A stretch of 63,179 nt of DNA. It comes from an uncultured bacterium. GTDB lineage: Bacteria; Oederibacteriota; JAAXVQ01; JAUVAV01. The notes under the pieces were generated by a model. That model did not search any database and was not told the DNA's origin. It worked only from the letters and a program-made list of their open reading frames with translations. Below, one piece after another: positions 1,265 through 39,040 of this stretch. Numbering within the stretch: the stretch's first letter is position 1; the number at the start of each line of letters is the position of its first letter. The DNA is taken from contig CBDUZI010000003.1 of the NCBI GenBank assembly GCA_965371665.1, positions 1 through 63,179 of the forward strand. The letters run 5' to 3'. The position numbers and the translations under genes are program-made.

Positions 1265-1579
1265 GATTTCTCTCCTAGGCAGACTGCAGGGCTTAAAGCA
1301 TTCGGGAAGGACATGCTTGGTTTTACGTAAGGGTGCTTCCGCAAAATAAAATTGACCACATCGTCCCATTTTCTACGTGCCTCACTATATCACCTTTTAC
1401 CTGAGAAAAGAAGGGCAGGCACATAAAAAGTTAGAGATGGCCGCGCTTTCTTCATCCGCTGGATCCCGGCCTATCCTGGTTGGAAGATTTTTTTAATCAA
1501 CTGCATTTTTTTTTGAAAGGATTTAGTCCGCGCCCTGTCGAACTATATATTGAACCAAATTACACCCGGGAGTGGATTA

Positions 1580-4500
1580 ATGTCTGTAAATAATCGCAGC
1601 CATCGCGGTATTTCCTGTTTGCTCTGTTTTTTACTGGTTTTTCCTGCACATTTCGTTCCCCTTTCAAGCCAGGGCCGGATAATTGGCCAACCAACCCGGT
1701 CCCGGCCTGAATATTCTTTTCGCCAATTGGTTATCTATATTCCTGATATTTTTGATAATGCCAAAGAAATAGCGAAAGCCCTTTCTCGCCTGCGCGCCAA
1801 AGGAATCCCGGCCCAGGATATAATAAATCTTGCCCAACATCCTGATTTTGATCCCAAATCAGGGCTGGCAGTGCAGGCCGAGCAGTTGGCACGAATCGCG
1901 GAAGTGGAATCCGCCAAGCGCAGGGGGCTCAAGGCCCATCTGATTGCCAAAGGCACTGGCGGCCTGGTGGCCCGTGCTTATCTGGCCGCGGCCAAAGAAA
2001 TCCGGCCCGCGGGAGCGCCTATTATTGATGTTATAGGCATCGGAGTTCCGCATAATGGAAGATTATGGGCCAAGTGGGCATATGCTCTGGCTCTTCCCTT
2101 GCCTGGAGTGGGCGCGCGTTCAGCCGCAGTACGCGACCTCTCACCGGACTCCCGGTTTATGCGTAAATTGAATCAGCTTAAAAACAAACGCGAAAAAATG
2201 GTTCATGCGGCCGAAGCAACGCTGACAAGCCTGTATGACCTCCCCTTCAATCAGAAACTTCAAGCCAAACTTACTGCCATTGACAGGGCCAAAGCCGAGG
2301 CTGCAGAACAGGTGGATCGGATCTTCAGTTCCCCGGAAAGTATTAAATTAGGTCCGCAAGACATGCAACACATTAATGAAATGAAAAGTTCGTGCCAGGC
2401 GCTGAAAATGGCATGCGAGAAATTTGACAATACGCTTGCCAAAGAGGCCAGGGTAAAGGAGCTGGCCAGGCTGGGGCATGATATTAATCGTGAACAGGTT
2501 AAAATCCGCCAAAAGATTGCCGAGCAGTCCCGGAAACCCGCTGACTGGCTGGAGCGCTCGCCCCTGGCCCAAAAGCTGTTGGAAATCAAGGATTTAAGCA
2601 GGGTAATTGAAACCAAATCTGATCAGGCTCAGGGCCGCTTGCTGGATATTCTTTATTCCCCGGAATTCTACCAATTAGGCCTGGTTCCCGGAAATCCGAA
2701 AAACCAACTCCTATCCACTATTGCCGGAAAGACCCAAGAACTGGGAGAGATTTTCTCGCAGGATAAGTGCAAAAAGGCCTTGGATGAGCTCGACCTCTTT
2801 TATGGCCGGACCACGCCGAGGCTGAGAAAACAATGGGATGATTTTACCGCCATGTCAGTCACTGTTTCCCAAAAGCCCCTGGGGCATAAGCCGGGGAGTA
2901 GATTTGCCCGAGCTGCGATCGCCTTAACCCGCCTGCAAACGGCCTGGGATGAGATGGAGGAATCCCGGCAAAAATGGCTGGCCGGGCTCAAGCAATACGC
3001 AGAGGCTGAATCGAATATCTTCCTGCGCGATAAATTTCAGGCCTATCAGGAAAATATAGAGCTGTCAGCGCAGCAACTTGAAAAAAGCGCTCCCGCGGAT
3101 TTTGCAAAAGCCCGGCAGATCATGGACAAGGCCAAACAGATTCTGACTCCAGCCCGGGATGAACTCTTTTCTTCTCCGAATATGCCCACGCTCACAGACG
3201 CGGTCCGGGCCAGGTATCAGGCTTTTAAAATCCACCAAGAAGATTTTTTGGATGCAGTAGAGTACGCGAGAGAAAAAGTTTCAAGCCGGATTGTTAAAAA
3301 GGAATACCTGCTGTATTTGGAGCGCGCGAATCATTTGGACCAACTGGTCATGGATAAAATGTCTCATCGCCCAGGGGAATTAACTCAAGCTATCATAGCC
3401 TTGGAAATGGGCTCCGCAGTCAAGGAAATGGAAATGTTTGCCCAGACCTCGCGCCAACGTCTGGATCGCGAGTTTGAGAAACTCTACCATAAGATGGAAG
3501 TTCCCCCTTCTTCTGACCCATTATTTTCCCATGACCCGAGCCAGTCTGACGGCCGGGTCTTGCATGAGAGCTTAAGTAAAATCAAGCAGAGCCTGAGCAG
3601 CTATAAATCACTCCGCGATCTGGATTATCTTAAGGGAAAATCCGACCTGCTCAAGTTGCACTTGCAAAAACAGACCCAGGCAGCAGAGCGAAGCCTGCCT
3701 GCCTTTGATGCAGTCCGGGCGCTGGAGAAAATGGGACATGCCGAGCAATGTATGAAAATGATATACTCCCGGAGCGCGGGGGATTTAAACCGAAAAGTTA
3801 TGCAAACTGATCTTGCCGCAGAACTATCTCAACTATCTCAAGAGCGCCGGGATCTGGTTATGGCTGTTCTGAGCATAACCGGCCAAGCCTTTGAACAAAC
3901 CAAAGCCTTTGATCTTACCCGCTTTGCCGCCCGTCTGGAAGCTTTTGGGCGGCTGCCATCGGCTAACCCGTTTTTTTGGAATCTCGCCCAACAGCAGATT
4001 AAATTGTATACGGAATCTAATAAGGCTTTGCGTCTCTACCGGAATTTGGCCAAGCTGGAAATAGCAGAGCAAGCGGCCAGGGATGCGGTATGGGATCATT
4101 TAAACAAGGCAGTTCAGCTCGATAAAGCCAGAAAACATATTGGCCACGCGGCCGGGGCATCGCAAACCATGACCTGCCTGCGTGAAAAATCTGATTTGCT
4201 GCAGCAACTTAACCTGAGAATAGAAAGGCTCTCCGCCTTGCAAGCTAAAACCCTTCCCTCTGCCCAGAATTTCCGGCTGCGTGATTGGCAAAATTTGAAA
4301 AAACAGATTGCAGCCGGGATAGCGCAAGAGAAGGAAATTCTTTTTAGCCGGCAGGCCTTGCTGACAAAAAGCTCTGCCCAAGTAAGCGCCTTTCTGCCTG
4401 CGCCATGGGATAGTCCGTTGAAACGTCAACATGACTTATATTCCGGCGAGACACTTGAACAAATTATGGAACACAAATATACGGAACATTTTAAAACCCT

Positions 4501-7500
4501 GGCTATCAAAGAGAAGCAAATAAAGCAAGACCTGCAAACTTGTATCCAGACCGTAAAGCAGGCCGGGCTTTTAGGCGAAATCAGGCAGGAACTACATGAT
4601 TTAAACAGCACCCAAATCCGGGCCCAGCATTACTTAAAGACTAATCTGCATCTGCTTAAGCAGCAGGTTTTGCTAAGCCGGCTCTTGCAGCAATTTGATA
4701 AGCCGCCTGATGAGGCAACGCATATGCCAGCCGCTTTGCATGGACCCGATATTGATAGGCAGCAAACCTTACAAAAGCCTGATGTCCAGAAAAAACTGGA
4801 AACATCCCGGATGGATCGGGAAAAAATAGCCGCGGCCCTGGACCTGATAAATATTGAAATATCCGCTCAGCTCATGAGCGCAGGGTTGAAATTTAATGCC
4901 GCCCAGGTCAAGTCAACCGCCCAACGCAGCCAGGCCCGGTTCAAAACCCGGCTGGTGGATATGGATAAGCAGTCCGGCCGGGAATGCCGGGATGCGCTTT
5001 TAAACATCAATCACCTGGCAGCCGGAGCTGCGCAGGATATCGGAGACATAATTAAGAATATTCATTTGGCATCTTTCACCTGCGACATTAGCCGGGCCCT
5101 GGCACGCGCTAAAGACCGGAGCAACCGGGCGGCCCAGGATATTGCCGCTGGCCGGGCACCGCCGGATTGGGATATCGCAGGAACACGAAGCGCCAAACCT
5201 CTACCGCAAATATACGAAAATGTTGTCAACCGTGCAGTGGATTTTATCCGGCAGCAGGCTATACGCACACAAGTCCAGCAATCCCTGGACCAGGTTGCCA
5301 TTCTGGGCAACGAGGCGCGCGCGCTGCTGGACCGGCATATTTTGAAAATTAGTGATCATTTGGCCAGGTTCATCTTTGCAGAAGCACGGCCCGCTATGCC
5401 CCTGCTCTCCTCTGCCAATCCGGCCCTGGACAGATTAGCTGAACAAATCGGCCTGGCAGGCTCCCAGTCTCAAATCCTTAAAGAACTCAATAAACTCCAA
5501 AACCTAAAAGACCATTTCAACGCCGGTCTGGAGCGCCAATTGCTGGAAATCCGGAGAGCGGATGCAGCCCTGGTTATGCAAGCTATTGCCGCAAAATATC
5601 AAACCCTGGGCGAGGAATTCCAGGAAGCATGCGGAAAAATTACCTGTCAGCTGAATTCCGGGAACCAGGCTTTGGATCCGGCCTTCAATTTCGTAAATCC
5701 GGGGCAGTTTAAGATTGATCAGGAACTCTTGCGAACCTTGCAGCAGGATGTTTTTACCAGGCTGGTGGAATCCCATCCCATCTTAAAAGAGCTTGAGAAA
5801 CCGAAGGATGTTATTGGCCTCTTGAATAACCTGGCAGCCCAAGGCGGGGCCCAGTTTTCTAAATGGCTGCATCGCACCGAGGCTTATAAACATGCAGAAA
5901 CTTTAGCCCGGCTGAGGCAGGAAGCCAAGCATCTGCTCGATCAGGCTGTTGCGCAAGGTACTATTGACTTGCTTAAAAACGACCTGGGCCGGCTCATGCG
6001 CGAGATAGGGCTCGAAACCAAACAGATCGAGACAATTTTCAGCACAGTCACCGGGCCTCTAAAAGATATGATCCTGCGTTCTGAGTTTATGCAGCAATTG
6101 GATGTTTTTCAACGCCTGCCGGACCTCATCACCGGCCAGATAGATTCTTTCATCGGCGATGTTCAGGCTTTGATAAGCAATAACGCTTTTATGCAATCCA
6201 TTAATGCCTTGGGTAAAAATGTCCTGGCTATCTGGGATCAGCTAAGCGGGGAAAAATCCTGGTCCCTGGCTGGGATGGGTCAAAAATTGGCAGCGCATTT
6301 TAGCGGAGCAGCCGGTTTCGGGCAGACGGCAATAAATCAAGTCCAGGCCTTGATCGCGGATATGGGCGGCTCCCACAACGCCCTTGGCCTATGGGCCGGG
6401 ATCTCGGAAGGTTTTAGTAAATTTGGCGAGAATCTAGCGGGCAGCCTAAAAGATTTCATTACCTCCTCCTGCAATATCGATCTGGGCGCGGCTTTTATGA
6501 ATTTCACTTTATCCCCCGGGCAATTCTTCACTAAAGCCGGAGATATGATCAGCGGATTTATAGCTGACAGTTTTGAGTTTCGTTTCGATTCCTCCGGCAG
6601 CTGGTTCCAGGCAGATCAGGTTTGGGATACAGTGGCCGATATTTTCAATTCCGAGAATTGGAAACTTGATTTTTTCCGGACCGCGGATGGATTTATGCAA
6701 TCCATTTCCGATGGTATCAGCTCATTGGCGGGCCGCGGCCTCGAGTGGGCTCAGAACTGCTGGCAGGAATACCTTGGCCAGGCGCAGGAGTATCTTGACA
6801 TCTTCACAAGCGGGCCGTCGCGATGGCTGGAAGAACTGACCAGCGGAAAGTGGGCGGACTCCATCAACGGTCTGATAGACAAATTCCTGCCCCCTGAGTT
6901 CCAGCCCGCCAAAAGCGCGCTGGAGAAGATTTATTTTACCTTTGACGCGGATTTTGATTTCTCGGCTGATTATATTTTCAGCGTGCTGGATGACTTGAGC
7001 GTTTATCTGAGTGATGATCTGCGCGGAATCTATGCGGATATTAGTGATCTATACGCGCAAGGACAAGAATACTCCCAAAGAGGACAAGCAGCCTGGGATG
7101 TCATCCAGAGCGGAGATTTAACATCCCTCGCTGTCATGGGCTCCCGGCTGCTTGGTTCCCTGGAAAACCCGGGTCCGGTGTACGTCCTGGGAAACGGCCC
7201 GGCTAGAAATAGAGGAGCGTATGCCAATCACACCGGACAAACCTATCAAAACTACATGGATGATTATCTTGCGCAACTCGACCCCAGCCTCCACAATCTC
7301 CCGGACATTTCGGCCGTAGGGGCGGCCTCCGGTATCCGCTCGAGCAGTTCAAATGTAGGGGCGGACCTCCGTGTCCGCCCAGGCAGTTCAAACGTAGGGG
7401 CGGACTTCCATGTCCGCCCGGGTATTTCCGACGCCGTCGCTGATGTCGATGCGCCCTTACTGGAAAAACCCGAATTATCTGCTCCGCGCGGCGGTATTCC

Positions 7501-8629
7501 CATGCCGCCGGGCAAAGGCCATTGGGAAATCGATCCCGCAACCGGAAGAAACGTCTGGGTGTCAGAAGAGGATTCAGAGACACCCTCCCTCCTTTCCCGC
7601 GTCGAAGGCATGCTCAAAGAAGGAGCCAAAACCTGGGCGGATCCCCGAAGATGGGGCCCCAAGGCGGAGAAAGTTAATGAGGCCATTATTGAAACAGCCC
7701 CTAAAGTCGGCGCCGTATTAAAAGAAGCCGGAAAGACCTGGGCTGATCCGAGGAGGTGGGAGAAAAAAGCGGAGAAGGTGAATAAGGCGGTGGGCCGCGG
7801 AGCGCCTGAAAAAGGTGAATATTTAAAAAAGACTGCTTATCAACTGGGCGATATTACAAAAGCCGGGATAAAAAGCTCCTTCAATTTAATGAAAAAAGGG
7901 GCAGCTAATTTTATTAATCCAAAAAAATATATTAAAACCACCAAAGACCTCTCGCGCTGGGGGTTAAACAAAGCAGGGCAAATTGGGAAAAACATTGGTA
8001 AAAAGGGGGCCGAAAATTTAAACAATGCCAGGATTTTCTGGAAAAACCCCAGCAAATTCAAGAATGGTCTTAAATTTTGGCAGGAACGCACCTTAAATAC
8101 TGCTTATAAACTAGATTTGGATTACGGCAAAACCGGCATCATCGATGGCACAAAATTCGGATTATGTGTAGGATACATGGCCAAATTTAAATTAGGAAGA
8201 CTTGGTCGTTTTAAAATCGGGTGTAAGAAAAGTGTTTTAAAAGAAGTAGTAAATGGCGAACTTATATTTAAAAAAGAAAATTATATAGGAGGTGAACTTG
8301 AATTTTTAGGAATGGGAGTTAAAATGGCCAAAGAGAACGGCAAGTATGACTTTGATTTCTATTGGAGCAAGGATTTTGTCGAAATTAACAAAGACGCTAT
8401 AGAAATAGGCGGCACATTTATTTTCCCAGGAACGCCTATAGGCGTAACCGGCGAAGGACACATTCATCTTGATAAATTACTAAAAAAGGCGATAATGCCA
8501 TTCAGGAGGAGAAAAAATGAAGAAAACAATCCAAAGAATAATGATACTGAATCTAGCTATAGGGAACTTGATTTCTATTTTTTCACCGATATCAGCTTCA
8601 GGAAGTTTGAAAAATATTACGTTTCCTGA
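1580..8629 (+). CDS. Giant secreted protein: lipase-like alpha/beta-hydrolase head with degenerate nucleophile motif, long helical region, Lys-rich C-terminal module
   Basis: Uninterrupted ~7.05-kb ORF. ATG 1580 is preferred over TTG 1550 because GGAG lies ~8 nt upstream, and it yields MSVNNRSHRG plus hydrophobic ISCLLCFLLVFPAHFV, which looks like a signal peptide. 'HLIAKGTGGLVARAYL' and 'GIGVPHNG' resemble the lipase/PGAP1 GHSxGG and GTPHxG motifs. More than 1,400 aa are Q/K/E/L/A-rich. Internal 35-aa duplication at 7613-7790. Confidence 0.8.
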   Translation: MSVNNRSHRGISCLLCFLLVFPAHFVPLSSQGRIIGQPTRSRPEYSFRQLVIYIPDIFDNAKEIAKALSRLRAKGIPAQDIINLAQHPDFDPKSGLAVQAEQLARIAEVESAKRRGLKAHLIAKGTGGLVARAYLAAAKEIRPAGAPIIDVIGIGVPHNGRLWAKWAYALALPLPGVGARSAAVRDLSPDSRFMRKLNQLKNKREKMVHAAEATLTSLYDLPFNQKLQAKLTAIDRAKAEAAEQVDRIFSSPESIKLGPQDMQHINEMKSSCQALKMACEKFDNTLAKEARVKELARLGHDINREQVKIRQKIAEQSRKPADWLERSPLAQKLLEIKDLSRVIETKSDQAQGRLLDILYSPEFYQLGLVPGNPKNQLLSTIAGKTQELGEIFSQDKCKKALDELDLFYGRTTPRLRKQWDDFTAMSVTVSQKPLGHKPGSRFARAAIALTRLQTAWDEMEESRQKWLAGLKQYAEAESNIFLRDKFQAYQENIELSAQQLEKSAPADFAKARQIMDKAKQILTPARDELFSSPNMPTLTDAVRARYQAFKIHQEDFLDAVEYAREKVSSRIVKKEYLLYLERANHLDQLVMDKMSHRPGELTQAIIALEMGSAVKEMEMFAQTSRQRLDREFEKLYHKMEVPPSSDPLFSHDPSQSDGRVLHESLSKIKQSLSSYKSLRDLDYLKGKSDLLKLHLQKQTQAAERSLPAFDAVRALEKMGHAEQCMKMIYSRSAGDLNRKVMQTDLAAELSQLSQERRDLVMAVLSITGQAFEQTKAFDLTRFAARLEAFGRLPSANPFFWNLAQQQIKLYTESNKALRLYRNLAKLEIAEQAARDAVWDHLNKAVQLDKARKHIGHAAGASQTMTCLREKSDLLQQLNLRIERLSALQAKTLPSAQNFRLRDWQNLKKQIAAGIAQEKEILFSRQALLTKSSAQVSAFLPAPWDSPLKRQHDLYSGETLEQIMEHKYTEHFKTLAIKEKQIKQDLQTCIQTVKQAGLLGEIRQELHDLNSTQIRAQHYLKTNLHLLKQQVLLSRLLQQFDKPPDEATHMPAALHGPDIDRQQTLQKPDVQKKLETSRMDREKIAAALDLINIEISAQLMSAGLKFNAAQVKSTAQRSQARFKTRLVDMDKQSGRECRDALLNINHLAAGAAQDIGDIIKNIHLASFTCDISRALARAKDRSNRAAQDIAAGRAPPDWDIAGTRSAKPLPQIYENVVNRAVDFIRQQAIRTQVQQSLDQVAILGNEARALLDRHILKISDHLARFIFAEARPAMPLLSSANPALDRLAEQIGLAGSQSQILKELNKLQNLKDHFNAGLERQLLEIRRADAALVMQAIAAKYQTLGEEFQEACGKITCQLNSGNQALDPAFNFVNPGQFKIDQELLRTLQQDVFTRLVESHPILKELEKPKDVIGLLNNLAAQGGAQFSKWLHRTEAYKHAETLARLRQEAKHLLDQAVAQGTIDLLKNDLGRLMREIGLETKQIETIFSTVTGPLKDMILRSEFMQQLDVFQRLPDLITGQIDSFIGDVQALISNNAFMQSINALGKNVLAIWDQLSGEKSWSLAGMGQKLAAHFSGAAGFGQTAINQVQALIADMGGSHNALGLWAGISEGFSKFGENLAGSLKDFITSSCNIDLGAAFMNFTLSPGQFFTKAGDMISGFIADSFEFRFDSSGSWFQADQVWDTVADIFNSENWKLDFFRTADGFMQSISDGISSLAGRGLEWAQNCWQEYLGQAQEYLDIFTSGPSRWLEELTSGKWADSINGLIDKFLPPEFQPAKSALEKIYFTFDADFDFSADYIFSVLDDLSVYLSDDLRGIYADISDLYAQGQEYSQRGQAAWDVIQSGDLTSLAVMGSRLLGSLENPGPVYVLGNGPARNRGAYANHTGQTYQNYMDDYLAQLDPSLHNLPDISAVGAASGIRSSSSNVGADLRVRPGSSNVGADFHVRPGISDAVADVDAPLLEKPELSAPRGGIPMPPGKGHWEIDPATGRNVWVSEEDSETPSLLSRVEGMLKEGAKTWADPRRWGPKAEKVNEAIIETAPKVGAVLKEAGKTWADPRRWEKKAEKVNKAVGRGAPEKGEYLKKTAYQLGDITKAGIKSSFNLMKKGAANFINPKKYIKTTKDLSRWGLNKAGQIGKNIGKKGAENLNNARIFWKNPSKFKNGLKFWQERTLNTAYKLDLDYGKTGIIDGTKFGLCVGYMAKFKLGRLGRFKIGCKKSVLKEVVNGELIFKKENYIGGELEFLGMGVKMAKENGKYDFDFYWSKDFVEINKDAIEIGGTFIFPGTPIGVTGEGHIHLDKLLKKAIMPFRRRKNEENNPKNNDTESSYRELDFYFFTDISFRKFEKYYVS
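7344..7422. repeat. Two tandem 39-bp units with the hairpin core GGGCGGAC-N6-GTCCGCCC, inside the giant ORF
   Basis: 'cagttcaaa(t/c)gtaggggcggac(ctccgt/ttccat)gtccgccc' occurs twice. It translates as SSSNVGADLRVRPG / SSNVGADFHVRPG. Confidence 0.8.
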
Positions 8630-8846
8630 AATACTATTAGGCGTCTGGATATTCATTTCCATTATTTGCGCCATCTATATTTTGTTTTTTTCTTTTTCAC
8701 ATTGGAGCAAGCAATCATTTACCAGCGGCTTTATGAAATTTATCTGGCTTTTTGTAATCATTTTCGGCATGTTTATTCATTTTGCCGGACCAATTCTGTA
8801 TTATATTATGGTTGTTGAATTGAAGAAAACTTTAATAAAAATTTAA
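8517..8846 (+). CDS. Small integral membrane protein (about 3 hydrophobic spans), function unknown
   Basis: ATG preceded by 'AGGAGGAG' ~7 nt upstream. Hydrophobic segments include ILLGVWIFISIICAIYILFF and FIWLFVIIFGMFIHFAGPILYYIM. Overlaps the giant ORF's 3' end by 113 nt in another frame. Confidence 0.6.
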   Translation: MKKTIQRIMILNLAIGNLISIFSPISASGSLKNITFPEILLGVWIFISIICAIYILFFSFSHWSKQSFTSGFMKFIWLFVIIFGMFIHFAGPILYYIMVVELKKTLIKI

Positions 8847-8938: not shown

Positions 8939-8976
8939 ATTTAGTTTCTATTGCAAAAAGGTTGTTTTAGTTTTTT

Positions 8977-9147: not shown

Positions 9148-10002
9148 ATGAAAAAAAGCCTAAGCATTATAATATTATCTGCATTTTGTTGTATCCTGGC
9201 CGCATCAGCGCTGGCTACAGTCCCAAAGTTAATCAATTATTCCGGTAAACTAACGGATAAAGCTGGGAACGTCTTGCCTGACAAAGCTTATGACATACGT
9301 TTCTCCTTATGGACCGCGCAGACCGGCGGAACTGAGGATTGGTGGGAGGAACATTACATAACGCAAGTAAGAGGCGTCCAGACATACGGAGGCGGATTCA
9401 ATGTGGTTCTAGGCGGCACGAGACCTTTCCCGGTTTTTGATCAAAATTATTGGCTGCAATTAACCGTAACCATAAACAGCACGCCTGAGACCTTTTCCCG
9501 GCAGGAACTTATTACTGTGCCCTATGCAATGCGCGCGGAGTGGGCGAATGAAGCAAAAACTGTTGAAGATAATGCCATTACTCATGCTAAAATAGCTCCC
9601 GGCGCTGATCTGCCTATTGGTTCGATAATAGCTTGGCATAAAAATCTGGGCGGTGTCCCTAGCCTGCCTCCTCAATATGTCGAGTGTAATGGCCAAGCCT
9701 TAAATGATCCCTCAAGTCTTTTAAATGGTCAAATTATACCTAATTTGAATGGAGAAGGTAGATTTTTAAGGGGTAGTAATGTTGCCGGAACCATGCAAGC
9801 GGATGAATTGAAAAGTCATAATCATCAAGTTATCTCAAGTTGGCCTTCTGCTACTTGTACAGAATGGCATGTTGTCGCTGATTGGATGGATCCTGGAGAA
9901 GGTGTGACTTGGGAGAACTGGGGGCCCTCATTAACGCATACTGGCGGGTCTGAAACACGCCCTATTAATATGAGTGTAGTTTGGATCATGAAGATAAAGT
10001 GA
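9148..10002 (+). CDS. Secreted protein with phage tail-fibre/collar-like C-terminal domain
   Basis: Start moved to ATG 9148 (AAGGAG upstream; MKKSLSIIILSAFCCILAASALA looks like a signal peptide). C-terminal 'GSIIAWHK...PNLNGEGRFLRGSN...ELKSHNHQV...HTGGSETRPINMSVVWIMKI' follows the tail-collar pattern (G-I-x-W ... PDLRGRF ... HxH ... ETRPxN). Confidence 0.5.
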   Translation: MKKSLSIIILSAFCCILAASALATVPKLINYSGKLTDKAGNVLPDKAYDIRFSLWTAQTGGTEDWWEEHYITQVRGVQTYGGGFNVVLGGTRPFPVFDQNYWLQLTVTINSTPETFSRQELITVPYAMRAEWANEAKTVEDNAITHAKIAPGADLPIGSIIAWHKNLGGVPSLPPQYVECNGQALNDPSSLLNGQIIPNLNGEGRFLRGSNVAGTMQADELKSHNHQVISSWPSATCTEWHVVADWMDPGEGVTWENWGPSLTHTGGSETRPINMSVVWIMKIK

Positions 10003-10052
10003 TTCTTCTTTAATTTAAGACATTTTTTAAATGTGGAGATTAGTATTTAACC

Positions 10053-10682
10053 ATGGTTAATATACCAATACGGCATAAGTTTCTTCTGAAACAATTAATC
10101 AAAGCACAGGAAATATATTTCCCCAATAAAGCTATTAAGGCATTAGATATTGGAGCGTCTAATGGGAGTTTTATTACATTAGCAAGTAAACGCATTTGTA
10201 ACTTAGAAAGAATTGACGGCGTAGAAACAGATTCAACTTATGCTGATTATATTTCATCAATGGGCCATTTATTTATCCAAGACCTTCAGATTGACACCGG
10301 AAATATTCCATTGCATACATATAATATTATCACTATGTGGGAAATTATTGAGCATATTGAAAATATCTACGTTTTTTTAAGGAACGTTAAAAACCTCCTT
10401 GCTAAAGATTCAATTATTACAATTGCTACGCCCAACACAATGAGTTTCAGTAGACTATTTAAGGGTAATAACTGGATAGGAACGAGGGATAGAAGTCACA
10501 GAATCTTATATGATAAATTAACCTTGAAAATGCTGCTGGAAAACTCAGGATATTCCATTTTAAAGATATGCAATTATTTTTTCCCTAACAGATTACCGGA
10601 AGCATTTTCAGTGCTAAATAATATCACGTCACCTTTTCCAGGCGGAGGAATGCTGTTTGCTATTGCTAAGATAAAGCAGTAA
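10053..10682 (+). CDS. Class I SAM-dependent methyltransferase
   Basis: Motif I-like 'ALDIGASNGSF', 'ITMWEIIEHIEN', and 'SIITIATPN' post-motif. Confidence 0.7.
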   Translation: MVNIPIRHKFLLKQLIKAQEIYFPNKAIKALDIGASNGSFITLASKRICNLERIDGVETDSTYADYISSMGHLFIQDLQIDTGNIPLHTYNIITMWEIIEHIENIYVFLRNVKNLLAKDSIITIATPNTMSFSRLFKGNNWIGTRDRSHRILYDKLTLKMLLENSGYSILKICNYFFPNRLPEAFSVLNNITSPFPGGGMLFAIAKIKQ

Positions 10683-10721
10683 TCGGATTTCGTTTTTAAA
10701 TATATTTTTTCTTGACATAGC

Positions 10722-10811
10722 CCAGGAGCCTGAGCAATTAGTCGCTGGATTCCCGATACGATCATTCGGGAATGACAACCTAAAAAACAGACTAATTACT
10801 CAGGCTCCTAG
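10722..10811. repeat. Family-1 MITE-like element with 19-bp terminal inverted repeats
   Basis: TIRs 'aggagcctgagcaattagt' (10724-10742) and 'actaattactcaggctcct' (10791-10809) have 1 mismatch. Inner hairpin 'ggattcccga...tcgggaatgac'. Confidence 0.75.
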
Positions 10812-10860
10812 CAAGAATTGATAGCAAGCTTACTGATAATAATTTTAAATCCTGCAAAGG

Positions 10861-12399
10861 TTGAGGATTTTTATTTTGATATATTACTCTAAACTCCATA
10901 CACTCGGCCTAATTTCTATTTTTGCCTCCATCCTACTACTTGCCCTCCTGCATATGCTGCAATCCACAACAATTTGGGATGATGCATTTATTACCCTTCG
11001 GGTTGCAAACAACTGGGCTCAAACCGGCATTCCGGTTTATAATTTAGGTCAGACGGAATGGATTCCTACTAACTTTTTATGGGTGGCATTACTTGCCGGC
11101 CTTAACAAACTAACGCTAATCAATCTACCTCTGCTAAGTCAAATCACTGGAGGAATATGTGGAATAGGTATTATTATTTTATTATTAACAATTCCGTTTA
11201 AAGAAAACACCCGGACAGTAAATATTTTTGCAGCAATCTTATGCAGTTTATCGGCTCTTTGGGCAGCCTGGCCATTATCCGGCTTGGAAACCAGTTTGTT
11301 TTCTTTGTTGATAACAGCCGGGGTATTATTAATTATTATTTATTTTGATAAACCCAAAAAGGAAACATTAATCGCTTCCGCCATCTTGTTAGGCATGGCC
11401 TCACTAACTAGACCAGAAGGTATAGTATTTTTTATTATTTGCTCTTTTTTTATCCTTTTATATAAAAGAAAATGGCATTATCCAGGTTGGTTTGCATTGG
11501 TATTTGGAGCAATAATTTCATCTGGGATCCTGTATTTATTGCTGACTTTTAAAACTATACTGCCCACTTCCTATTTTGTAAAAATCCATGGACTCCAGAA
11601 TATTGCTCCTGGCATGGCATATCTGAAATCCTTATCCCAAATTTATAATCTTATCTGGGTTATGCCCATTTTTATTTTTCCTTTTCTTTTAAAAAACGAA
11701 AGGAAAAAAACCCTTTTTTTAACAATGATTCTATGCGGATGGTTTGCTTGCATTGGTATCATTGGCGGTGATTTCATGCCTTATCACCGTTTTATATCTC
11801 CAGTCTGGCCGCTGCTCTGCTTTTATATAGCTTTTAGTCTTGGTTCTTTAATGGATTACTGGCAAAAAAAACAGCCAACTTATGAATTATTGTTCAAACT
11901 TGGTATTTATGTTATATTGGGTCTCATTTCTTTGAACTTTATACTTCCTACTTTCCATGGTAAAGATCACACTCGGGTTCAATCCTGGAGCCGCGAAGAA
12001 GCTGACAGGACCGCCATCGGCAAATGGTTTAGAGGCCGTTATGAACACACGGACTGGGTAGCTGTTAAACCTGCAGGCATCATACCTTTTTATTCGAACA
12101 TGAATGCCCTGGATTTTTATTGTCTTTCTTCCCGTCAGGCTGCTCAGACCGGCCAATTTGTGCCGCAACATTGGGTGGGACATCAAAAAGTGAATGTGGA
12201 TTGGGTGCTTAAGCAGCGTCCGCGCATTGTCATCCTGGACGAGCATTTATATTCCTTCGAAAATCTTCCAGAACCTGATCAGGGAGAAGGTATTATTGAA
12301 CGAGAATGGCGAAAAAGCCCGCTACGACAGAATTATAAATCTTTTCAGATTGAATTACAGGCTAACAGATGGCTTCAATATTTTGAACGAATTGATTAG
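10861..12399 (+). CDS. Polytopic membrane protein, GT-C-type glycosyltransferase-like
   Basis: About 10 or more hydrophobic spans followed by a soluble C-terminal domain. N-terminal 'WDDAFITLRVANNW' loop resembles GT-C (arabinosyl/mannosyl-transferase-like) first-loop acidic motifs. The TTG start is uncertain. Confidence 0.45.
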   Translation: MRIFILIYYSKLHTLGLISIFASILLLALLHMLQSTTIWDDAFITLRVANNWAQTGIPVYNLGQTEWIPTNFLWVALLAGLNKLTLINLPLLSQITGGICGIGIIILLLTIPFKENTRTVNIFAAILCSLSALWAAWPLSGLETSLFSLLITAGVLLIIIYFDKPKKETLIASAILLGMASLTRPEGIVFFIICSFFILLYKRKWHYPGWFALVFGAIISSGILYLLLTFKTILPTSYFVKIHGLQNIAPGMAYLKSLSQIYNLIWVMPIFIFPFLLKNERKKTLFLTMILCGWFACIGIIGGDFMPYHRFISPVWPLLCFYIAFSLGSLMDYWQKKQPTYELLFKLGIYVILGLISLNFILPTFHGKDHTRVQSWSREEADRTAIGKWFRGRYEHTDWVAVKPAGIIPFYSNMNALDFYCLSSRQAAQTGQFVPQHWVGHQKVNVDWVLKQRPRIVILDEHLYSFENLPEPDQGEGIIEREWRKSPLRQNYKSFQIELQANRWLQYFERID

Positions 12400-12456
12400 C
12401 CAATAGTATAGAGATAATCATTTTCCGTTTTATTTTTTAAAAGGAGCAAAAAGTTT

Positions 12457-13977
12457 ATGAATGTTTTTAAAATTAATTTTGATCGTGTAAAGCGCATCAT
12501 TTTTACAGATGTTCGATTTTCATTATTGTCTATATTTATTCTTTCTTTAGGAGGAATATTACGTTTTTGGCATCTGAATCGCCAAAGTTTATGGCAGGAT
12601 GAAATACATACCGCCATCTATGTCAATGATCATCCTTCTCTATGGGAAGTAATTCATCGCGTAGCCACCTGGGATTTGCATTCCCCCTTGTTTTATGTCT
12701 TGCTCCGGGTCCAAGTATGGTTCCAGCAGTTGGTTAGTATTCCTTTAACCGACGGCAATCTCCGAATCATCTCCGCTTTATTAGGCTTTTTAGCCCTGCC
12801 CGTTCTATATTTTTTATTCCGAAGAGTATTCAATCATAAATTTTACGCCTTATCAGCTGTTTTCCTGGCGGTTATAAATATTTACGGTATTTATTATTCG
12901 CAAGAACTGCGTATGTATTCCTTAATTTTATTATTATCTCCCTCACTGCTTTACTTCGGTTTAAACCTTTGGGACAATGATAATAAACTAAACCTCGGCG
13001 CTGCTATGGGATATGTCACATGTAGTGTAATGCTTATTTATTCAAGTCTGGTTACTTTATTTTTTGTATTTGGTGTATGGCTAAGTGTTTTGGTAATAAG
13101 TGTTTTCCAAAGAAAAAACCATCCCCAGCAAATAACCGAGGTTATTAAGCTTGGTTTTATGATCTTCATCTGCTATCTGCCCTGGTTAGGTGTGATGTGG
13201 AAACAAAGCATGACACTAAAGGAGGGCGTTGGAACCGGGCTGGTTATTACTCACCCTCGCGAGTTATTTAAATTCGCTTTTGAGAAATTACTTTTCCATG
13301 ACTGGAAACTGGATATAAATTATGGCATCATTAATAAAATTGTCCGTAATTTAATCCCCTTCTCATTATTGAATCTTCTCGATCGCAAAAACCGCCAGAA
13401 ACACTTGCTGATCATTTCCAGTTTTTGCTTCGCGTTTATCTTGTATTATGTGATTATTTTTAACCGGGATTTTCAATGTTCCCGTTACTTTGCCCCCTGG
13501 TGGCCCTACGCTATATATTTCATTGTGGCGGGTTTTTCAGGTATAATTTACTGCTTAAATAAAATTAACCCTCGCCTGAAGTTAGCCGGTATTATTTTCA
13601 TGGCTCTATTTATGGGTTACTATACTTTTGTCCAGTCAAAACAAATACATTACTACTTTTCACAGTATGAAAAAGAGAATTGGCGGGGACTGGTTGAATA
13701 TCTAAATATCCACAAAAAAGCAGGGGATGTTTTGGTCACCGGCGGAGACTGGCATAAAACTAATTTAACCTATTATGGCGTTACTTTACCCTTTGTATAT
13801 ACCCATGATCTTAAAAATGATAAATATACCGCTAATTTCAAACGCTATATTTATATTGAGGTGAAAAATCCACAATATGATACAAAATTAAGACTTCCCC
13901 AAAATTTTAAAAAAGTCCCCTGGCCTATACATTGTAAAAATTATTATATCTGGGAGCCGGAAAGTAAATCGCATTAA
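12457..13977 (+). CDS. Glycosyltransferase family 39 (ArnT/PMT-like) membrane protein
   Basis: AAGGAG RBS ~10 nt upstream. 'SLWQDEIHTA' first-loop motif typical of GT39/ArnT-like proteins. Many TM spans plus a C-terminal soluble part. Confidence 0.55.
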   Translation: MNVFKINFDRVKRIIFTDVRFSLLSIFILSLGGILRFWHLNRQSLWQDEIHTAIYVNDHPSLWEVIHRVATWDLHSPLFYVLLRVQVWFQQLVSIPLTDGNLRIISALLGFLALPVLYFLFRRVFNHKFYALSAVFLAVINIYGIYYSQELRMYSLILLLSPSLLYFGLNLWDNDNKLNLGAAMGYVTCSVMLIYSSLVTLFFVFGVWLSVLVISVFQRKNHPQQITEVIKLGFMIFICYLPWLGVMWKQSMTLKEGVGTGLVITHPRELFKFAFEKLLFHDWKLDINYGIINKIVRNLIPFSLLNLLDRKNRQKHLLIISSFCFAFILYYVIIFNRDFQCSRYFAPWWPYAIYFIVAGFSGIIYCLNKINPRLKLAGIIFMALFMGYYTFVQSKQIHYYFSQYEKENWRGLVEYLNIHKKAGDVLVTGGDWHKTNLTYYGVTLPFVYTHDLKNDKYTANFKRYIYIEVKNPQYDTKLRLPQNFKKVPWPIHCKNYYIWEPESKSH

Positions 13978-14028
13978 ACGGCCGACGCGCTATGTTGACG
14001 ATGGCAACCGCAGCCCTGCGCCGAAAGG

Positions 14029-15498
14029 ATGAACATGCTGTTTTTAAAAATATCAACTATTGTTTTTTTATCTGCCGCGGGCTATTTTATAGATAAAAAA
14101 TGGCCCAATATAAAGCATACCATCTCCGGCAAAATCAACTGGAACCTGGCCGCTTTTTCTTTAATGGCCGTTTATTTTATCTTTTATCTCATCTTGAAAA
14201 TCACCCAGCATTATTCTTTTCATACCAATGCCTTTGATCTATCCATCTTTGACTACGCCGTGGCGAATACTCTGCGCGGCAAATTTCTTCATGTTCCCTT
14301 TTTAAACGGCTCGTTTTTAAAGGAGCATTTTAGCCCGATTCTGCTTTTACTCACGCCGTTGTATATGCTTAAAAAATCACCGATTAATCTGCTGGTGCTC
14401 CAATGCCTGGCCGTGGCCGGTGCGGCCTGGCCGTTATTCTTGTTGGCCAAAAAGCAACTGGCAAATAAAGCCTTGGCCCTGGTTATTGTTTTTGCATATT
14501 TAAATAACTGGTATCTTGTTCATGGATTGCTCTATGATTTTCATGTGGAAATGTTCGAACCATTGCTGATCATATTAATGGTTTGGGGATATTTGGAAAG
14601 AAAATATCCAATTTACTGGACTTCCCTGCTGCTGGCGCTTATGTGCAAAGAAGATGTAGGCATTTATCTCTTTTTCTTCGGTCTATTTGTATTAATTAAA
14701 GAAAAACGATTCAAGTTAGGTTTAATCACTTCCGCAGCATCGCTGTTATGGGTTTTAACTGCTTTAATAATCATAGCATTTATGAATAATGGCGCTGCTG
14801 CTTTCTCAGGCTATAAATTTTTAACCAATTGGATTCCCCCAGATACCAGTCTGTCGGAATATTTTTTCCATTGGGTTTCTCATCCTCATGAAGCCGCAAG
14901 TATCTTTTTGAATATGCGAGTCTGGCAACTGATTTATCCTCTGGCTTTTCTTCCGCTGTTTTCCTGGTGGGGCATTCTGCTCCTGGCGCCAATTGGATTG
15001 AATGCCGCCAGCGCCAATTCGCTGCAAGCTGGTTTTATGCTGTATTATTCCGCGCCCATAATTCCTTTTTTATTTGTGGGAATTATCTTCGGTCTGAAAA
15101 ACTTAATCCAACACAATACTAACAAATTCTGGATTTTGCTTGGTTTATGCCTCTATTTAGCAATCTTCAATGTACACCGCTATTCTCAGGATAGTATCGA
15201 GGCCCGGCATAAGACCGGGAGCGCAATGCTGCAGAGTATCCCGGAAAACGTCCCACTGGCTGCTCAAGGCAGCCTGGTGCCGCATATTTCCCATCGCGAG
15301 CACATTCACATTTTACCCAGGATGGAAGCCAGCGATGAATATATTGCTTTAGACCTGGCTGGCAACCATTTTCCCATGACCAGGAAAGAGCTTTTAGATA
15401 TTTATAAATCCATTAAAAACAATCCGAAATATCAGGAAATCTTTAACCAAGATGATTTTATACTATTTCAGAAATCAAGAAAGAATGACACCATTTAA
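14029..15498 (+). CDS. DUF2079-like polytopic membrane protein (GT-C-like)
   Basis: 'FHTNAFDLSIFDYAVANTLRGKFLH' matches the conserved N-terminal loop I recall for DUF2079. Polytopic. Confidence 0.55.
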   Translation: MNMLFLKISTIVFLSAAGYFIDKKWPNIKHTISGKINWNLAAFSLMAVYFIFYLILKITQHYSFHTNAFDLSIFDYAVANTLRGKFLHVPFLNGSFLKEHFSPILLLLTPLYMLKKSPINLLVLQCLAVAGAAWPLFLLAKKQLANKALALVIVFAYLNNWYLVHGLLYDFHVEMFEPLLIILMVWGYLERKYPIYWTSLLLALMCKEDVGIYLFFFGLFVLIKEKRFKLGLITSAASLLWVLTALIIIAFMNNGAAAFSGYKFLTNWIPPDTSLSEYFFHWVSHPHEAASIFLNMRVWQLIYPLAFLPLFSWWGILLLAPIGLNAASANSLQAGFMLYYSAPIIPFLFVGIIFGLKNLIQHNTNKFWILLGLCLYLAIFNVHRYSQDSIEARHKTGSAMLQSIPENVPLAAQGSLVPHISHREHIHILPRMEASDEYIALDLAGNHFPMTRKELLDIYKSIKNNPKYQEIFNQDDFILFQKSRKNDTI

Positions 15499-15632
15499 AT
15501 TCAGCTCCTCATTGCCATTGACTCACTGAACAAGATTTTGCTATACTTCCCTGAAATCGCCTTGCTCTTTGCGGCAAACTCAGCTACATTTTATGGCAAG
15601 TGGAATATACTAGTTCTAAAGGATGTAACTTT

Positions 15633-16437: not shown

Positions 16438-16689
16438 ATGCCGCTTATTTCATTAAAAAAATTCAGTGTTGACGATCTCATTGATCTGATAGTCACTTTA
16501 ACGGTTTGTTTTGGAATTTTTGTAACTTTGATCGTGATTAACTTGATAATTTTTATCAATCCGGCTGCCGCCTCCCAACTTATCGGAACTGTCAGCGCAC
16601 AAAAAGGGGTAGGCGTTGGCGCTATATTATTTACTTCCTACCTTATATTGCGCTTAGTCTACCGCAGGAGAAAAAAAAATGCCGAATGA
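16438..16689 (+). CDS. Small membrane protein (2 hydrophobic spans, basic tail RRRKKN)
   Basis: ATG 16438 with AGGTGA ~8 nt upstream. Spans are LIDLIVTLTVCFGIFVTLIVINLIIFI and GVGVGAILFTSYLILRLV. Confidence 0.5.
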   Translation: MPLISLKKFSVDDLIDLIVTLTVCFGIFVTLIVINLIIFINPAAASQLIGTVSAQKGVGVGAILFTSYLILRLVYRRRKKNAE

Positions 16690-17221
16690 ACCTCTGGCCT
16701 ACCAGTCTAAATTCAAATATCTTTTAATGTTTCAAATAGTCCTGTTGCTTACGGCTTTGTCCGCCTTTGTTTATATTAGTTCCAAAGTGTCCAGTGAACT
16801 TAAGGCTTATAAAACCCTGAAAGAAACCCGCGACCAGGCTGAACAGGAATACCGGGCCTTAAGGTCTAATATTGAAAAATTCCATTCCTTAAAAATAACC
16901 TCTGCAAATGAGGTCTATGAAGTGAAAGCCACGGCCCGAGCCACTGGCGCTAAAACCCCGCAGGGATATCCCGTATACAAATTTTCCATGTATATTAATT
17001 CTCCTCCTGAACTATTGCATAGCATAACCAAAGTCACTTATGAATTCAATCATCCGACCTTTTCGAAGCCGCTGCATGAAGTAACCGATGCCCGCTCTAA
17101 ATTTGCCACCTTTTATACCGGATGGGGTTGCCTGAATTCGGTGCTAGTAAAAGTCTATCTTAGTGATAACACTTTACAAACCATAGATTTTAATATGTGC
17201 AAAAATATAGGCTGGGAATAA
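16679..17221 (+). CDS. Membrane-anchored coiled-coil protein with C-terminal prokaryotic-YEATS (pYEATS)-like domain
   Basis: AGGAG RBS. N-terminal TM LLMFQIVLLLTALSAFVYI, then a helical 'KAYKTLKETRDQAEQEYRALRSNIEKF' segment. C-terminal 'ITKVTYEFNHPTFSKP...SKFATFYTGWGCLNSVLVKVYLSDN' fits the pYEATS signature (V-x-Y-x-LHPTF ... GWG-x-F). Confidence 0.5.
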   Translation: MPNEPLAYQSKFKYLLMFQIVLLLTALSAFVYISSKVSSELKAYKTLKETRDQAEQEYRALRSNIEKFHSLKITSANEVYEVKATARATGAKTPQGYPVYKFSMYINSPPELLHSITKVTYEFNHPTFSKPLHEVTDARSKFATFYTGWGCLNSVLVKVYLSDNTLQTIDFNMCKNIGWE

Positions 17222-37969: not shown

Positions 37970-39040
37970 TCATGGTATTACCTCAATCTCTCCAGATCGC
38001 GAAAATCCATATATCTTGTCAGTCAATCGGCATAAATAAGGTATTAGTCCATCTCCAAAAAGACCATGGTATTTCCCATTGAAACCAAAACTATCGCGCA
38101 CTTGTACATTCTTGTTAAAAGCTGATATTAAATTGCTGGCTTGCTGGTTGGAAATCCGTTTTATGAACGGTAACAGTTCAGACAAAGGGTTTGCGTCATC
38201 ATATTCTTGACAATCCCGGATAGCTTTGATGTATGCGTTCAACATCCGATCATGCGACATTAATATTTTTACGATTTCTTTTGCGGCCATATCCCACGAA
38301 CAGGAAATCGCTTGAGACTTTCCTAGAAAACCATACGGATCTTTCCCTAATTTAACAGAAATAATCGGCACGCTTCGTCCAAAAGCAAACCCCACTTCTT
38401 GATCCGTCCAATTACTACCATGGAAGTCTTCCGTCATAAGTGCCACAAACGCATCCATTGAAAAAAGGGCGTTCTCGATTTCACTTTGCCATTCTTCAGT
38501 AGGCCGAATGTCTTCATGCGCCACAAAACCAGATATTCCGAAAAGCTTTAGTTTTTCTTTTAATTCTGCTGTTTCTTTTTTAACTTCGGTTTTGTGGCTA
38601 AGAAACAATCTATACCCATCATTCCCCCAGATACGGTTCACGGCTTCGGGCAGAATAGCACGCTTGCCTGCCAAAAGCTTTCCGGATTCTTTTCGCCAAT
38701 CTCGTTCTTCTACGCGTTCCATCTCTAAAAAAACACTGTCGATAAACTCATCCTGAACATTATGAACTTTATTTAGATCATCCTTTATTTGCTTCTGTAG
38801 TTTATCCTTTTTCTTAGCAGCGCTAATATATAATATTTCTGGCATTACCAAATAAAGGGCATGACCATATGTAATACCGCCCATGTTCTCGTAACCACAT
38901 CCTTCATGGACCCTTATTTGAGAATTTACGATAATTTCCTGGAGTTCTTTTTGCCCATCATTCGCGTATAATTTTGAAAGCACCGCCAAATAATGCTCGA
39001 TATTCGAGGATAGTTGCAATTGAGATTCTTGTTCGCTCAT
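37970..39040 (-). CDS. TIR-domain protein with uncharacterised N- and C-terminal domains
   Basis: Central 'YRLFLSHKTEVKKETAELKEKLKLFGISGFVAHEDIRP...MDAFVALMTEDFHGSNWTDQEVGFAFG' fits the bacterial TIR/DUF1863 pattern (FISH ... S-x-W ... E). The gene is visibly lower in GC than its neighbours. Confidence 0.6.
   Translation of the reverse strand: MSEQESQLQLSSNIEHYLAVLSKLYANDGQKELQEIIVNSQIRVHEGCGYENMGGITYGHALYLVMPEILYISAAKKKDKLQKQIKDDLNKVHNVQDEFIDSVFLEMERVEERDWRKESGKLLAGKRAILPEAVNRIWGNDGYRLFLSHKTEVKKETAELKEKLKLFGISGFVAHEDIRPTEEWQSEIENALFSMDAFVALMTEDFHGSNWTDQEVGFAFGRSVPIISVKLGKDPYGFLGKSQAISCSWDMAAKEIVKILMSHDRMLNAYIKAIRDCQEYDDANPLSELLPFIKRISNQQASNLISAFNKNVQVRDSFGFNGKYHGLFGDGLIPYLCRLTDKIYGFSRSGEIEVIP

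Follow-up and report, generated by a model that had tools for sequence, protein, structure and literature searches.

The window analyzed here is the whole 63,179-nucleotide (nt) stretch of contig CBDUZI010000003.1 (assembly GCA_965371665.1) from an uncultured bacterium, and it carries a gene for a giant protein of 2,349 amino acids (aa). Judged by sequence comparison, this gene probably encodes a polymorphic toxin on a hitherto undescribed Sec-dependent scaffold, and the small open reading frame (ORF) overlapping its 3' end (8517..8846) is its candidate immunity gene. The reading is based on an export signal, a constant body, a pre-toxin junction, recombining C-terminal modules (CTs), downstream partner genes and cassettes shared between scaffolds. 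These properties match the definition of polymorphic toxins by Zhang et al. (2012; PMC3482391), which names an export signal, a constant body, a pre-toxin junction, recombining C-terminal toxins, downstream immunity genes and shared cassettes.

The features of the locus are as follows (positions in the window; + is the forward strand):

1580..8629, +: giant-protein gene, 2,349 aa, with the stop codon at 8627-8629
1580..1672, +: signal sequence (aa 1-31), with a basic n-region, a hydrophobic core at aa 8-31 and possible cleavage between SQG and R
1673..2194, +: head (aa 32-205), apparently a degenerate remnant of a lipase-type alpha/beta-hydrolase
1946..1963, +: AKGTGG, the nucleophile elbow of the head (aa 123-128), with Gly125 in place of the catalytic Ser
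2195..6019, +: stalk (aa 206-1480), long, predicted to be amphipathic-helical, variable in length in the family
6020..7294, +: conserved C-domain (aa 1481-1905), acidic and aromatic-rich, with the motifs W(V/A)xDRW, GGPExW and YLPPEYQPAKSAL
7295..7798, +: linker or pre-toxin region (aa 1906-2073), with the motif EKPxLSxPRGGIPMPPGKGHW and, immediately ahead of the junction, two TWADPRRW units
7315..7419, +: in-frame 39-nt tandem repeat, 2.7 copies, with the GC-rich hairpin core GGGGCGGAC...GTCCGCCC, translated as SNVGADxxVRPG
7799..8626, +: CT, the candidate toxin (aa 2074-2349), with Lys-rich helices and a predicted 8-strand antiparallel beta core (aa ~2192-2295)
8517..8846, +: small membrane protein, the candidate immunity protein, 109 aa, with three hydrophobic segments and a 113-nt overlap with the CT
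7797..~9135, no strand assigned: swapped cassette of CT, small ORF and spacer; blastn matches to the alleles on contigs L001 and L087 break at 7796 and resume at 9121-9131

The giant gene and its exchanged cassette

The single uninterrupted ORF extends over 1550..8629 on the forward strand, and its likely start is the ATG at 1580, with GGGAGTGG just 5' of it. An identical protein (P0001, the window protein) is encoded on a second, independently assembled contig (L003; ENA ERZ25073602), and an unbroken orthologue of 2,278 aa with 81% identity (P0002) was found on an ENA contig (L001) and on a Logan contig (L002). A full-length orthologue of 2,438 aa was present in a GTDB metagenome-assembled genome (MAG) of candidate division FCPU426 (L091), and a partial orthologue in another MAG (L092). 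In the comparison with P0002 by the Nei-Gojobori method, the ratio of nonsynonymous to synonymous substitution rates (dN/dS) came to 0.33 over the body; by segment, it was 0.15 in the head, 0.27-0.50 in the stalk and 0.26 in the conserved C-domain. Because the frame is unbroken in independent assemblies and the body is under purifying selection (dN/dS 0.33), the ORF at 1580..8629 is a real gene and neither a chimera nor a misassembly; an earlier note on this DNA, made from the letters alone, had described it as one unbroken 7-kb ORF. Whole-protein searches of Pfam, NCBIfam and PDB sequences yielded nothing above threshold. RTX, RHS, Ig, hemagglutinin and autotransporter models had zero matches in Pfam and NCBIfam, in agreement with the earlier note, which had recognized no such motif by eye, and the same two libraries placed no TPS (two-partner secretion), FHA (filamentous hemagglutinin), VENN, RHS, DUF1020, PAAR, LXG or colicin domain on the protein.

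The DNA of the window and of L001 was 91.6% identical over 1272-7796, had no match over 7797-9120 and was 84% identical from 9121, and the third allele, on L087, broke at the same two points. The left junction lies directly after KAEKVNKA-x-G, and the right junction lies at TAAAAGGAGAA, the ribosome-binding site of the next gene. At the protein level, P0001 and P0002 were 72-98% identical per 50-residue window up to aa ~2050 and 12-32% identical thereafter. Among the three alleles (window, L001 and L087), protein identity was 85-91% in the pre-toxin region, 26-32% in the CT, 40-46% in the small ORF and 85% in the next gene. The mapping of conserved and variable segments among homologues, which the earlier note had proposed, thus gave a constant body with the last ~275 residues swapped at aa 2073. 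L001 has the nearest body (81-93% identity), yet its CT is ~30% identical to that of the window, whereas L091 and L092, with more distant bodies (69-90%), carry the window's CT at 87% and 82% identity together with the window's small ORF. Since the closest body has a distant CT and more distant bodies share the window's CT, the pattern is one of cassette exchange and not of gradual divergence; the CT was replaced by recombination, with the break at nt 7796 (aa 2073).

The tip (nt 7797-8629) has a GC content of 0.36 compared to 0.51 in the body, and the drop from ~0.56 to ~0.35 coincides with the break in protein identity. The low GC content and the sharp recombination junctions bear out the foreign look of the Lys-rich C-terminal module (15% Lys in aa 2076-2349), which had been noticed earlier. 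When modeled with AlphaFold2 (AF2) from six sequences, the CT began with two helices of low confidence and continued as an antiparallel beta meander of eight strands with a predicted local distance difference test (pLDDT) score of 74-83 (62 overall). A function of the CT as an outer-membrane beta-barrel anchor was rejected, since homologues have soluble enzyme-type modules at this position and the CT is swapped with the next gene; a C-terminal aromatic residue is also missing in most family members.

The small ORF could be expressed independently, because a perfect AGGAGG (8500..8516 region) lies 7 nt before its ATG and a sigma-70-like site (8469-8496; TTGATA-16-GATAAT, 10/12, a consensus match only) lies inside the CT. 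A homologue of the small ORF follows every CT of the window's family, at 7 loci (window, L001, L087, L089/L096, L090, L091 and L092), and other CTs have other, stop-overlapping partner genes, so that the downstream gene changes with the CT. The 113-nt overlap is preserved in L089, L091 and L092, and the nearest foreign CT (50% identity, L089) is paired with the nearest small ORF (63%).

Alternative tips in the wider family

When 1.84 billion representative proteins were searched exhaustively by phmmer with aa 1400-2349 as query, 16 hits were returned, two of which (P0016 and P0017) matched only the repeat linker and were discarded. Beyond the window's own protein, 13 true relatives were found; the family is very rare and therefore escaped annotation. 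A word-indexed homologue search returned P0002 and one head fragment only, and one fragment only when the C-domain profile was used. A whole-protein search of GTDB loci returned no relatives, and the tighter alignment A4 succeeded as a seed. P0015 was rejected as a stand-alone CT, as it was an artifact of an N-gap in scaffold L087 and is really the third allele.

The remote homologue P0012 (2,258 aa) could be aligned to the window protein over its full length, at 22% identity, and P0010 (1,252 aa) was a shorter version, its stalk measuring only ~240 aa. Each of the two possesses a signal sequence, a head lacking the Ser, the C-domain and the TWADPxR motif; their tips are wholly different, and the junction motif before them appears as TWADP(R/T)R. 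The P0012 tip is followed by a 196-aa lipoprotein and the P0010 tip by a HEAT-repeat protein, each with an overlapping stop codon, and the tip of this pair with the HEAT-repeat partner contains GHSAG. The FCPU426 genomes L093 and L094 have AHSQG[ST] tips with homologous signal-anchored partners of 163 and 166 aa. The label hydrolase-like for the AHSQG and GHSAG tips is based on these motifs only; Pfam matched nothing on the L093 and L094 tips, and PDB sequence searches with the tips of other homologues were empty. A motif reading of the P0012 tip as NlpC/P60-like was dropped, as no tool supported it.

One related lineage shares the identical junction sequence DISELEKPDLTDRGMIGRVPMPPNCYWDADTQAWVEIG across alleles with different tips. 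In two of these alleles (P0008 in L089/L096 and P0014 in L090), the tip is of the window's beta-rich CT family and is accompanied by the small membrane ORF. P0011 (L088) ends in Pfam Ntox46 (40 bits, cut-off 25), followed by a 97-aa soluble ORF with a weak, below-cut-off match to Tsi6 (18.3 vs 26.9 bits), and L097 and L098 have another tip with a partner of 131-142 aa. Ntox46 is the toxin domain of Tse6, a type VI secretion system (T6SS) NAD(P)+ glycohydrolase (PMC10763514). Each distinct tip was paired with a distinct downstream ORF, and the GC content of tip and partner was below that of the body at every locus. Tandem arrays occur in L088 and L098, where a complete CT/partner pair is followed by modules that are truncated at the 5' end and begin inside the C-domain. 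The window's CT family also ends an unrelated 833-aa protein rich in hydrophobic segments (P0018), which has an overlapping downstream gene. The cassettes are thus shared with another scaffold (P0018) and with a known toxin family (Ntox46 in P0011).

Several observations weigh against the reading as a polymorphic toxin. The CT had no significant match in Pfam, in PDB (profile and Foldseek) or in BFVD, where only generic beta-barrels were returned, and the CT and head models are both of modest confidence (pLDDT 62 overall each). The small ORF matches no known immunity family; its sole hit was Pfam PLDc_N, at 19.2 bits, below the cut-off of 23.3. The correlation between CT identity and small-ORF identity over 10 pairs rests on a single pair (Pearson 0.78, Spearman 0.09). 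Orphan CT/immunity cassettes, common though not required in polymorphic toxin systems, were found neither in the window nor in the closest loci and are present in the related lineage (L088, L097 and L098), and part of the arrays in relatives was seen on metagenome contigs of low coverage. No TpsB, T6SS, type I secretion system or similar export genes lie near the giant gene, and the protein carries no type IX secretion system (T9SS) signal. Genes for C-type glycosyltransferases (GT-C) and methyltransferases adjoin the giant gene even in remote relatives, which hints at a cell-envelope context. Finally, the three closest alleles are divergent versions of one CT family, and a diversifying binding tip could look alike.

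Such a binding tip belongs to a different reading, in which the protein would be a surface fibril or adhesin whose stalk projects a variable tip diversified by phages, predators or changing receptors, with the small ORF unrelated or accessory. A long helical stalk with a globular head and a tip would suit an adhesin, as would the single CT fold family of the three closest alleles and the predicted beta meander, which has a weak, non-significant likeness to fatty-acid-binding protein and lipocalin barrels; the neighboring tail-collar-fiber-like gene also has its C-terminal half swapped between strains. We nevertheless consider an adhesin unlikely, since the same position in body homologues holds enzyme-type modules (Ntox46 above cut-off; GxSxG hydrolase-like), each with a coupled ORF, since the downstream ORF is exchanged along with the tip, and since the truncated tip/ORF arrays of relatives are typical of toxin loci.

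Even less probable is a structural envelope protein (S-layer-like or spanning the periplasm), in which the CT and the small ORF would co-vary with the strain glycan of the adjacent low-GC island. Low GC marks the entire stretch of 7.8-16 kb, where strains differ in the genes they carry, and even relatives of ~30% identity have Methyltransf_23 genes and GT-C genes (PMT_2 with or without PA14) on the flanks of the giant gene; synteny within a single phylum, however, may be simple inheritance. Between its junctions, the cassette holds the CT and the small ORF only and leaves the glycosyltransferases outside, and L091 has the window's CT yet no match to window nt 9554-14060, which encode a methyltransferase and two GT-C proteins. 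The Ntox46 tip in homologues also argues against a structural role. A polymorphic toxin with a linked partner gene thus remains the preferred reading.

The constant body

The segment at aa 8-31 was the only one in the giant protein with a Kyte-Doolittle hydrophobicity >1.5. The n/h/c layout of a signal peptide, which the earlier note had seen at this N-terminus, was kept in homologues, several with clearer signal peptidase-type sites (SWA/E, GWA/F and VQA/G); the N-terminal export signal is therefore present, with its cleavage site assessed by eye.

The head was modeled with AF2 from a 3-sequence alignment (pLDDT 62, low to moderate) and had a beta-alpha-beta-alpha-beta-alpha-beta core. The top Foldseek matches in PDB were B. 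subtilis LipA, P. glumae lipase and PlaB; the match to LipA had a probability of 1.0 and a root-mean-square deviation of 2.4-2.9 Å over ~87 columns, at E ~1e-2 and a TM-score of 0.3-0.4. An 8-sequence head profile (A5) matched the putative lipase 7x2p in PDB at E 1.5e-4, and the next eight matches were all lipases. Pfam alpha/beta-hydrolase models also matched the head family (DUF7379 and Palm_thioest in 7/8 members; PGAP1, DUF676 and Abhydrolase_6), all below the gathering score and with a best E-value of 1.5e-4. In all HMMER registers, AKGTGG was aligned with GHSQGG/AHSRGG, and GVPHNGR, within and beyond GIGVPHNG (aa 153-160), with GTPHRGS (GTPHxGS type) of solved lipases, and RDLSPDSRFMRKLN was aligned with the lipase L-x-S-x-FL-x-L motif.

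The nucleophile position was occupied by Gly in 8/8 family members, in the pattern x-[KHR]-G-[TS]-G-[GA]. The strands that bear the Asp and His of lipases have no counterpart in the head, where homology stops at ~aa 200 and only helices follow beta-6 in the AF2 model (pLDDT 62). Because Gly replaces Ser in all eight members and the Asp/His-bearing part is missing, the head appears to be a truncated, catalytically dead relative of lipases, and it is the most constrained portion of the giant protein (dN/dS 0.15). The earlier description of a degenerate lipase/PGAP1-type head lacking the nucleophilic Ser was therefore upheld by the HMMER registers and the 7x2p match, and less firmly by the lipase, PGAP1 and DUF676 models proposed at the time, whose matches in 7/8 members were consistent and below cut-off; a canonical Ser missed through misalignment was not found in any member. 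That the protein is an active secreted lipase or esterase with Thr126 or another residue as nucleophile, the remainder being a carrier, is highly improbable: the [TS] after the lost Ser is kept in 8/8 members and the head is under the strongest constraint, but Gly stands at the nucleophile position in every HMMER register, a Lys, His or Arg stands two positions ahead of the Thr, at odds with a nucleophile elbow, the head model has no strands after beta-6, where the Asp and His would be, and all Pfam hydrolase matches are under the curated cut-off. The unusual Thr nucleophile that the earlier note had entertained was rejected on these grounds.

The head resembles family I lipases (Burkholderia/P. 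glumae lipase and B. subtilis LipA), PGAP1 and DUF676 in the order of its conserved motifs (strand-PD, xxGxSxGGLVAR elbow, GTPHxG, L-P-S-FL-LN) and in its predicted parallel beta-alpha core. Unlike them, it has Gly for Ser in every member, lacks the Asp/His C-terminal third, scores below the Pfam cut-offs and is fused to a stalk. As a separate observation, a homologue in L084 (8228..12725; GCA_023139775.1, JAGLMY010000029.1) is interrupted shortly beyond the head by one in-frame TAA, following residue 383, and then stays in this frame over 1,106 aa or more, which may represent a pseudogene, a sequencing error, readthrough or a real two-gene version.

L, A, Q, K, R and E are abundant in the stalk, where Pro and Gly are scarce, and it has a hydrophobic periodicity of 3.5-3.7 residues that was 6-7 standard deviations above shuffled sequences. 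Self-BLAST detected no internal sequence repeats in it, and the first ~60 stalk residues (aa ~192-250) formed long helices in the AF2 model of the head region. A helical stalk of more than 1,400 aa had been proposed earlier; its helical nature was supported by the periodicity (z 6-7), whereas its length came to 1,275 aa by the boundary used here, and the next domain also looks helical.

The C-domain after the stalk, described earlier as a G/S/F/W/D-rich region, proved to be S/G/D/F-rich over aa 1481-1905, with 12.9% aromatic residues, a net charge of -28 and a helical periodicity of z 7-8. It was the best-conserved segment of the body, 92-98% identical to P0002 and alignable in all remote homologues, and it had no Pfam match and nothing significant in a profile search of PDB. 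The repeat-derived linkers seen in the first reading correspond to the in-frame 39-nt tandem repeat and the two TWADPRRW units, and the copy number of the 39-nt repeat differs between strains, P0002 having one extra copy. Palindrome-derived VGA(D/N)L... insertions similar to this repeat were scattered in frame in homologues (P0004, P0006 and the L084 ORF), as though linker regions tolerate elements like repetitive extragenic palindromes (REP-like elements).

Host, neighborhood and comparison with known systems

The methionyl-tRNA synthetase encoded in the window was 66-72% identical to those of FCPU426 MAGs and ~50% identical to all others. KdsB, a TolC-like outer membrane efflux protein (OEP) and an AcrB pump are also encoded in the window, so the host has an outer membrane; by these sequence comparisons it is a diderm bacterium of candidate phylum FCPU426. 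The giant gene is neighbored by a divergent major facilitator superfamily transporter, the small ORF, a tail-collar-like gene, a Methyltransf_23 gene and genes for three GT-C-type membrane proteins, and the remainder of the window is ordinary chromosome, in which Rfam and tRNA scans were empty. Two features follow the cassette:

9148..10002, +: tail-collar-fiber-like gene, whose secreted product of 284 aa matches PHROG 'tail collar fiber' families at E 6.6e-10
~10000..15500: low-GC island (0.33-0.40), with Methyltransf_23 at 10053..10682 and GT-C-type genes at 10861..12399, 12457..13977 and 14029..15498 (the last DUF2079)

The N-terminal half of the tail-collar-fiber-like protein is kept between strains, its C-terminal half is replaced in L087 and two copies are present in L001, so this gene may be a second, independent polymorphic locus beside the toxin cassette. 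The gene content of the island varies among the window, L001, L087 and L091. PMT_2 GT-C genes (with or without PA14) flank the giant gene in L084, L093 and L094, and methyltransferase genes do so in L084, L085 and L086, which suggests a possible functional link, for example glycosylation of the exported protein; these neighbors leave room for a possible cell-envelope role or for glycosylation of the giant protein. CsgG, encoded upstream in L003, was rejected as an export partner for lack of conservation in L001. In L089 (1511..2101) and L096 (2319..2906), from the lineage with the nearest foreign CT, the gene that follows the cassette has a weak match to Por_Secre_tail, the T9SS C-terminal sorting domain (E 2.8e-5, 24.8 bits, below the 27-bit cut-off), a hint that these bacteria may possess T9SS-type sorting; a tail of this kind is absent from the giant protein. 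Genes for a TIR_2-domain protein (37970..39040, reverse strand), a prokaryotic YEATS-domain protein (16679..17221, forward strand) and a TatD DNase fused to a radical-SAM domain (27520..28917, reverse strand) are unrelated to the finding.

In the mechanism that we propose for the polymorphic toxin, Sec would export the giant protein through its N-terminal signal, and the constant body (dead head, ~1,275-aa helical stalk and acidic aromatic domain) would present an exchangeable toxin module at the C-terminus, marked off by the TWADPRRW...KAEKVNKA junction. The overlapping 109-aa membrane protein would be the cognate immunity protein and shield the producer and its kin, and strains would diversify by exchange of the CT and immunity cassette (nt 7797 to ~9135) through recombination at the conserved junctions. 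We infer that the window's beta-rich CT is itself toxic. Membrane-embedded immunity proteins pair with membrane-acting toxins, as in pore-forming colicins and the CdiA-CT of E. coli EC93, and by this analogy the CT might, tentatively, act at the cytoplasmic membrane. Of the two functions suggested in the earlier note, a contact-dependent effector comes close given the evidence for a polymorphic toxin with a candidate immunity gene downstream, which that note had missed, whereas an attachment organelle found no specific support.

The dead lipase head and the small membrane ORF appear to fit precedents described by Zhang et al. (PMC3482391), in which the signal peptide of Sec-dependent toxins is followed directly by domains that are lineage-specific or are inactive enzymes (MAFB-N, Microscilla-N and inactive transglutaminase), the inactive transglutaminase and MAFB-N being proposed to act as anchors, and in which the immunity family Imm17 is made of two transmembrane (TM) helices. 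By analogy, we infer that the dead head is an anchor or adhesion module. A fuller account is speculative and, taken as a whole, rather unlikely: the scaffold might be an unrecognized means of interbacterial-toxin delivery by a Sec-exported helical stalk, independent of TpsB, T6SS and RHS, in which the dead head anchors the protein to outer-membrane lipid of the producer, the acidic aromatic C-domain brings interchangeable toxins through the envelope of the target cell, the tip founds a new family of membrane-acting toxins with a beta-barrel-like fold and the partner founds a new PLDc_N-like immunity family with two or three TM segments.

The signal peptide followed directly by a lineage-restricted domain, in some cases catalytically dead, is like that of MafB (MAFB-N, Neisseria), Microscilla-N and RHS toxins with an inactive transglutaminase (PMC3482391). 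The locus also shares with the Sec-dependent polymorphic toxins of the same study a constant body with a polymorphic CT, a downstream immunity gene and low-GC cassettes, with orphan arrays in relatives only. It differs from them in that the head is a lipase-type remnant and not MAFB-N or transglutaminase, the presenting element is a ~1,275-aa helical region and not RHS, FilH or other repeats, the C-domain and TWADPRRW junction are without a match in Pfam or PDB, and the lineage is candidate phylum FCPU426.

CdiA/CdiB/CdiI systems likewise have an exported protein of great length, whose conserved body leads through a short junction motif into an exchangeable CT, with a cognate immunity ORF downstream. 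In E. coli EC93, the CdiA-CT goes with a small membrane CdiI, so the likeness extends to a membrane-embedded partner. Unlike CdiA/CdiB, however, the giant protein has no TPS domain, FHA/beta-helix repeats or VENN/PT motif in Pfam searches and no CdiB gene among its neighbors, and its stalk is predicted to be alpha-helical; whole-protein searches were likewise empty for the defining domains of Rhs/YD, RTX, autotransporter and Ig-like adhesin proteins.

Pore-forming colicins have immunity proteins with 3-4 TM segments, an elongated helical middle and a C-terminal killing domain. The locus is like them in its helical middle, its C-terminal module and its adjacent gene for a small integral-membrane partner, possibly with its own promoter. 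It is unlike them in having a Sec signal, a chromosomal location, a ~4-fold larger size and a CT predicted to be beta-rich and not a 10-helix bundle. Colicin-like bacteriocins are marked by a translocation, receptor-binding and cytotoxicity (T-R-C) organization, absence of a signal peptide, a known cytotoxic domain and a lysis gene; the giant protein does not conform to this, as a signal is present and no colicin domain was found.

The body homologue P0011 (L088), with its Ntox46 end and the 97-aa weakly Tsi6-like ORF that follows, is like Tse6/Tsi6 (PMC10763514); the window, in contrast, does not hold the Ntox46 allele, and delivery would here be without PAAR or T6SS. On these sequence features, the system resembles CdiA/CdiI, MafB/MafI or Rhs toxins in mode and is a member of none of those families. 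Relative to the libraries searched, the scaffold, the TWADPRRW junction, the predicted beta-rich tip family and the PLDc_N-like membrane partner are new. Full-text literature searches on FCPU426 and on polymorphic toxins in candidate phyla returned nothing on this giant-protein family.

Polymorphic toxins shape competition among close bacterial relatives, and their modular tips are a rich source of new enzymatic toxins. To our knowledge, almost all delivery scaffolds described so far are beta-rich filaments (CdiA and RHS), phage-like machines (T6SS and Photorhabdus virulence cassettes, PVC) or helical leaders of the type VII secretion system. If the polymorphic-toxin reading is true, the giant protein would extend this list by a Sec-dependent scaffold that is long and alpha-helical and bears a fossil lipase head, from a phylum without a cultured member, and would yield a new toxin-candidate domain together with a new small membrane-protein immunity candidate. 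The TWADPRRW...KAEKVNKA sequence provides a clean junction motif that is usable to mine further tips. If the anchor reading is also true, the dead-enzyme head would be a further example of catalytic domains reused as anchors directly after signal peptides.

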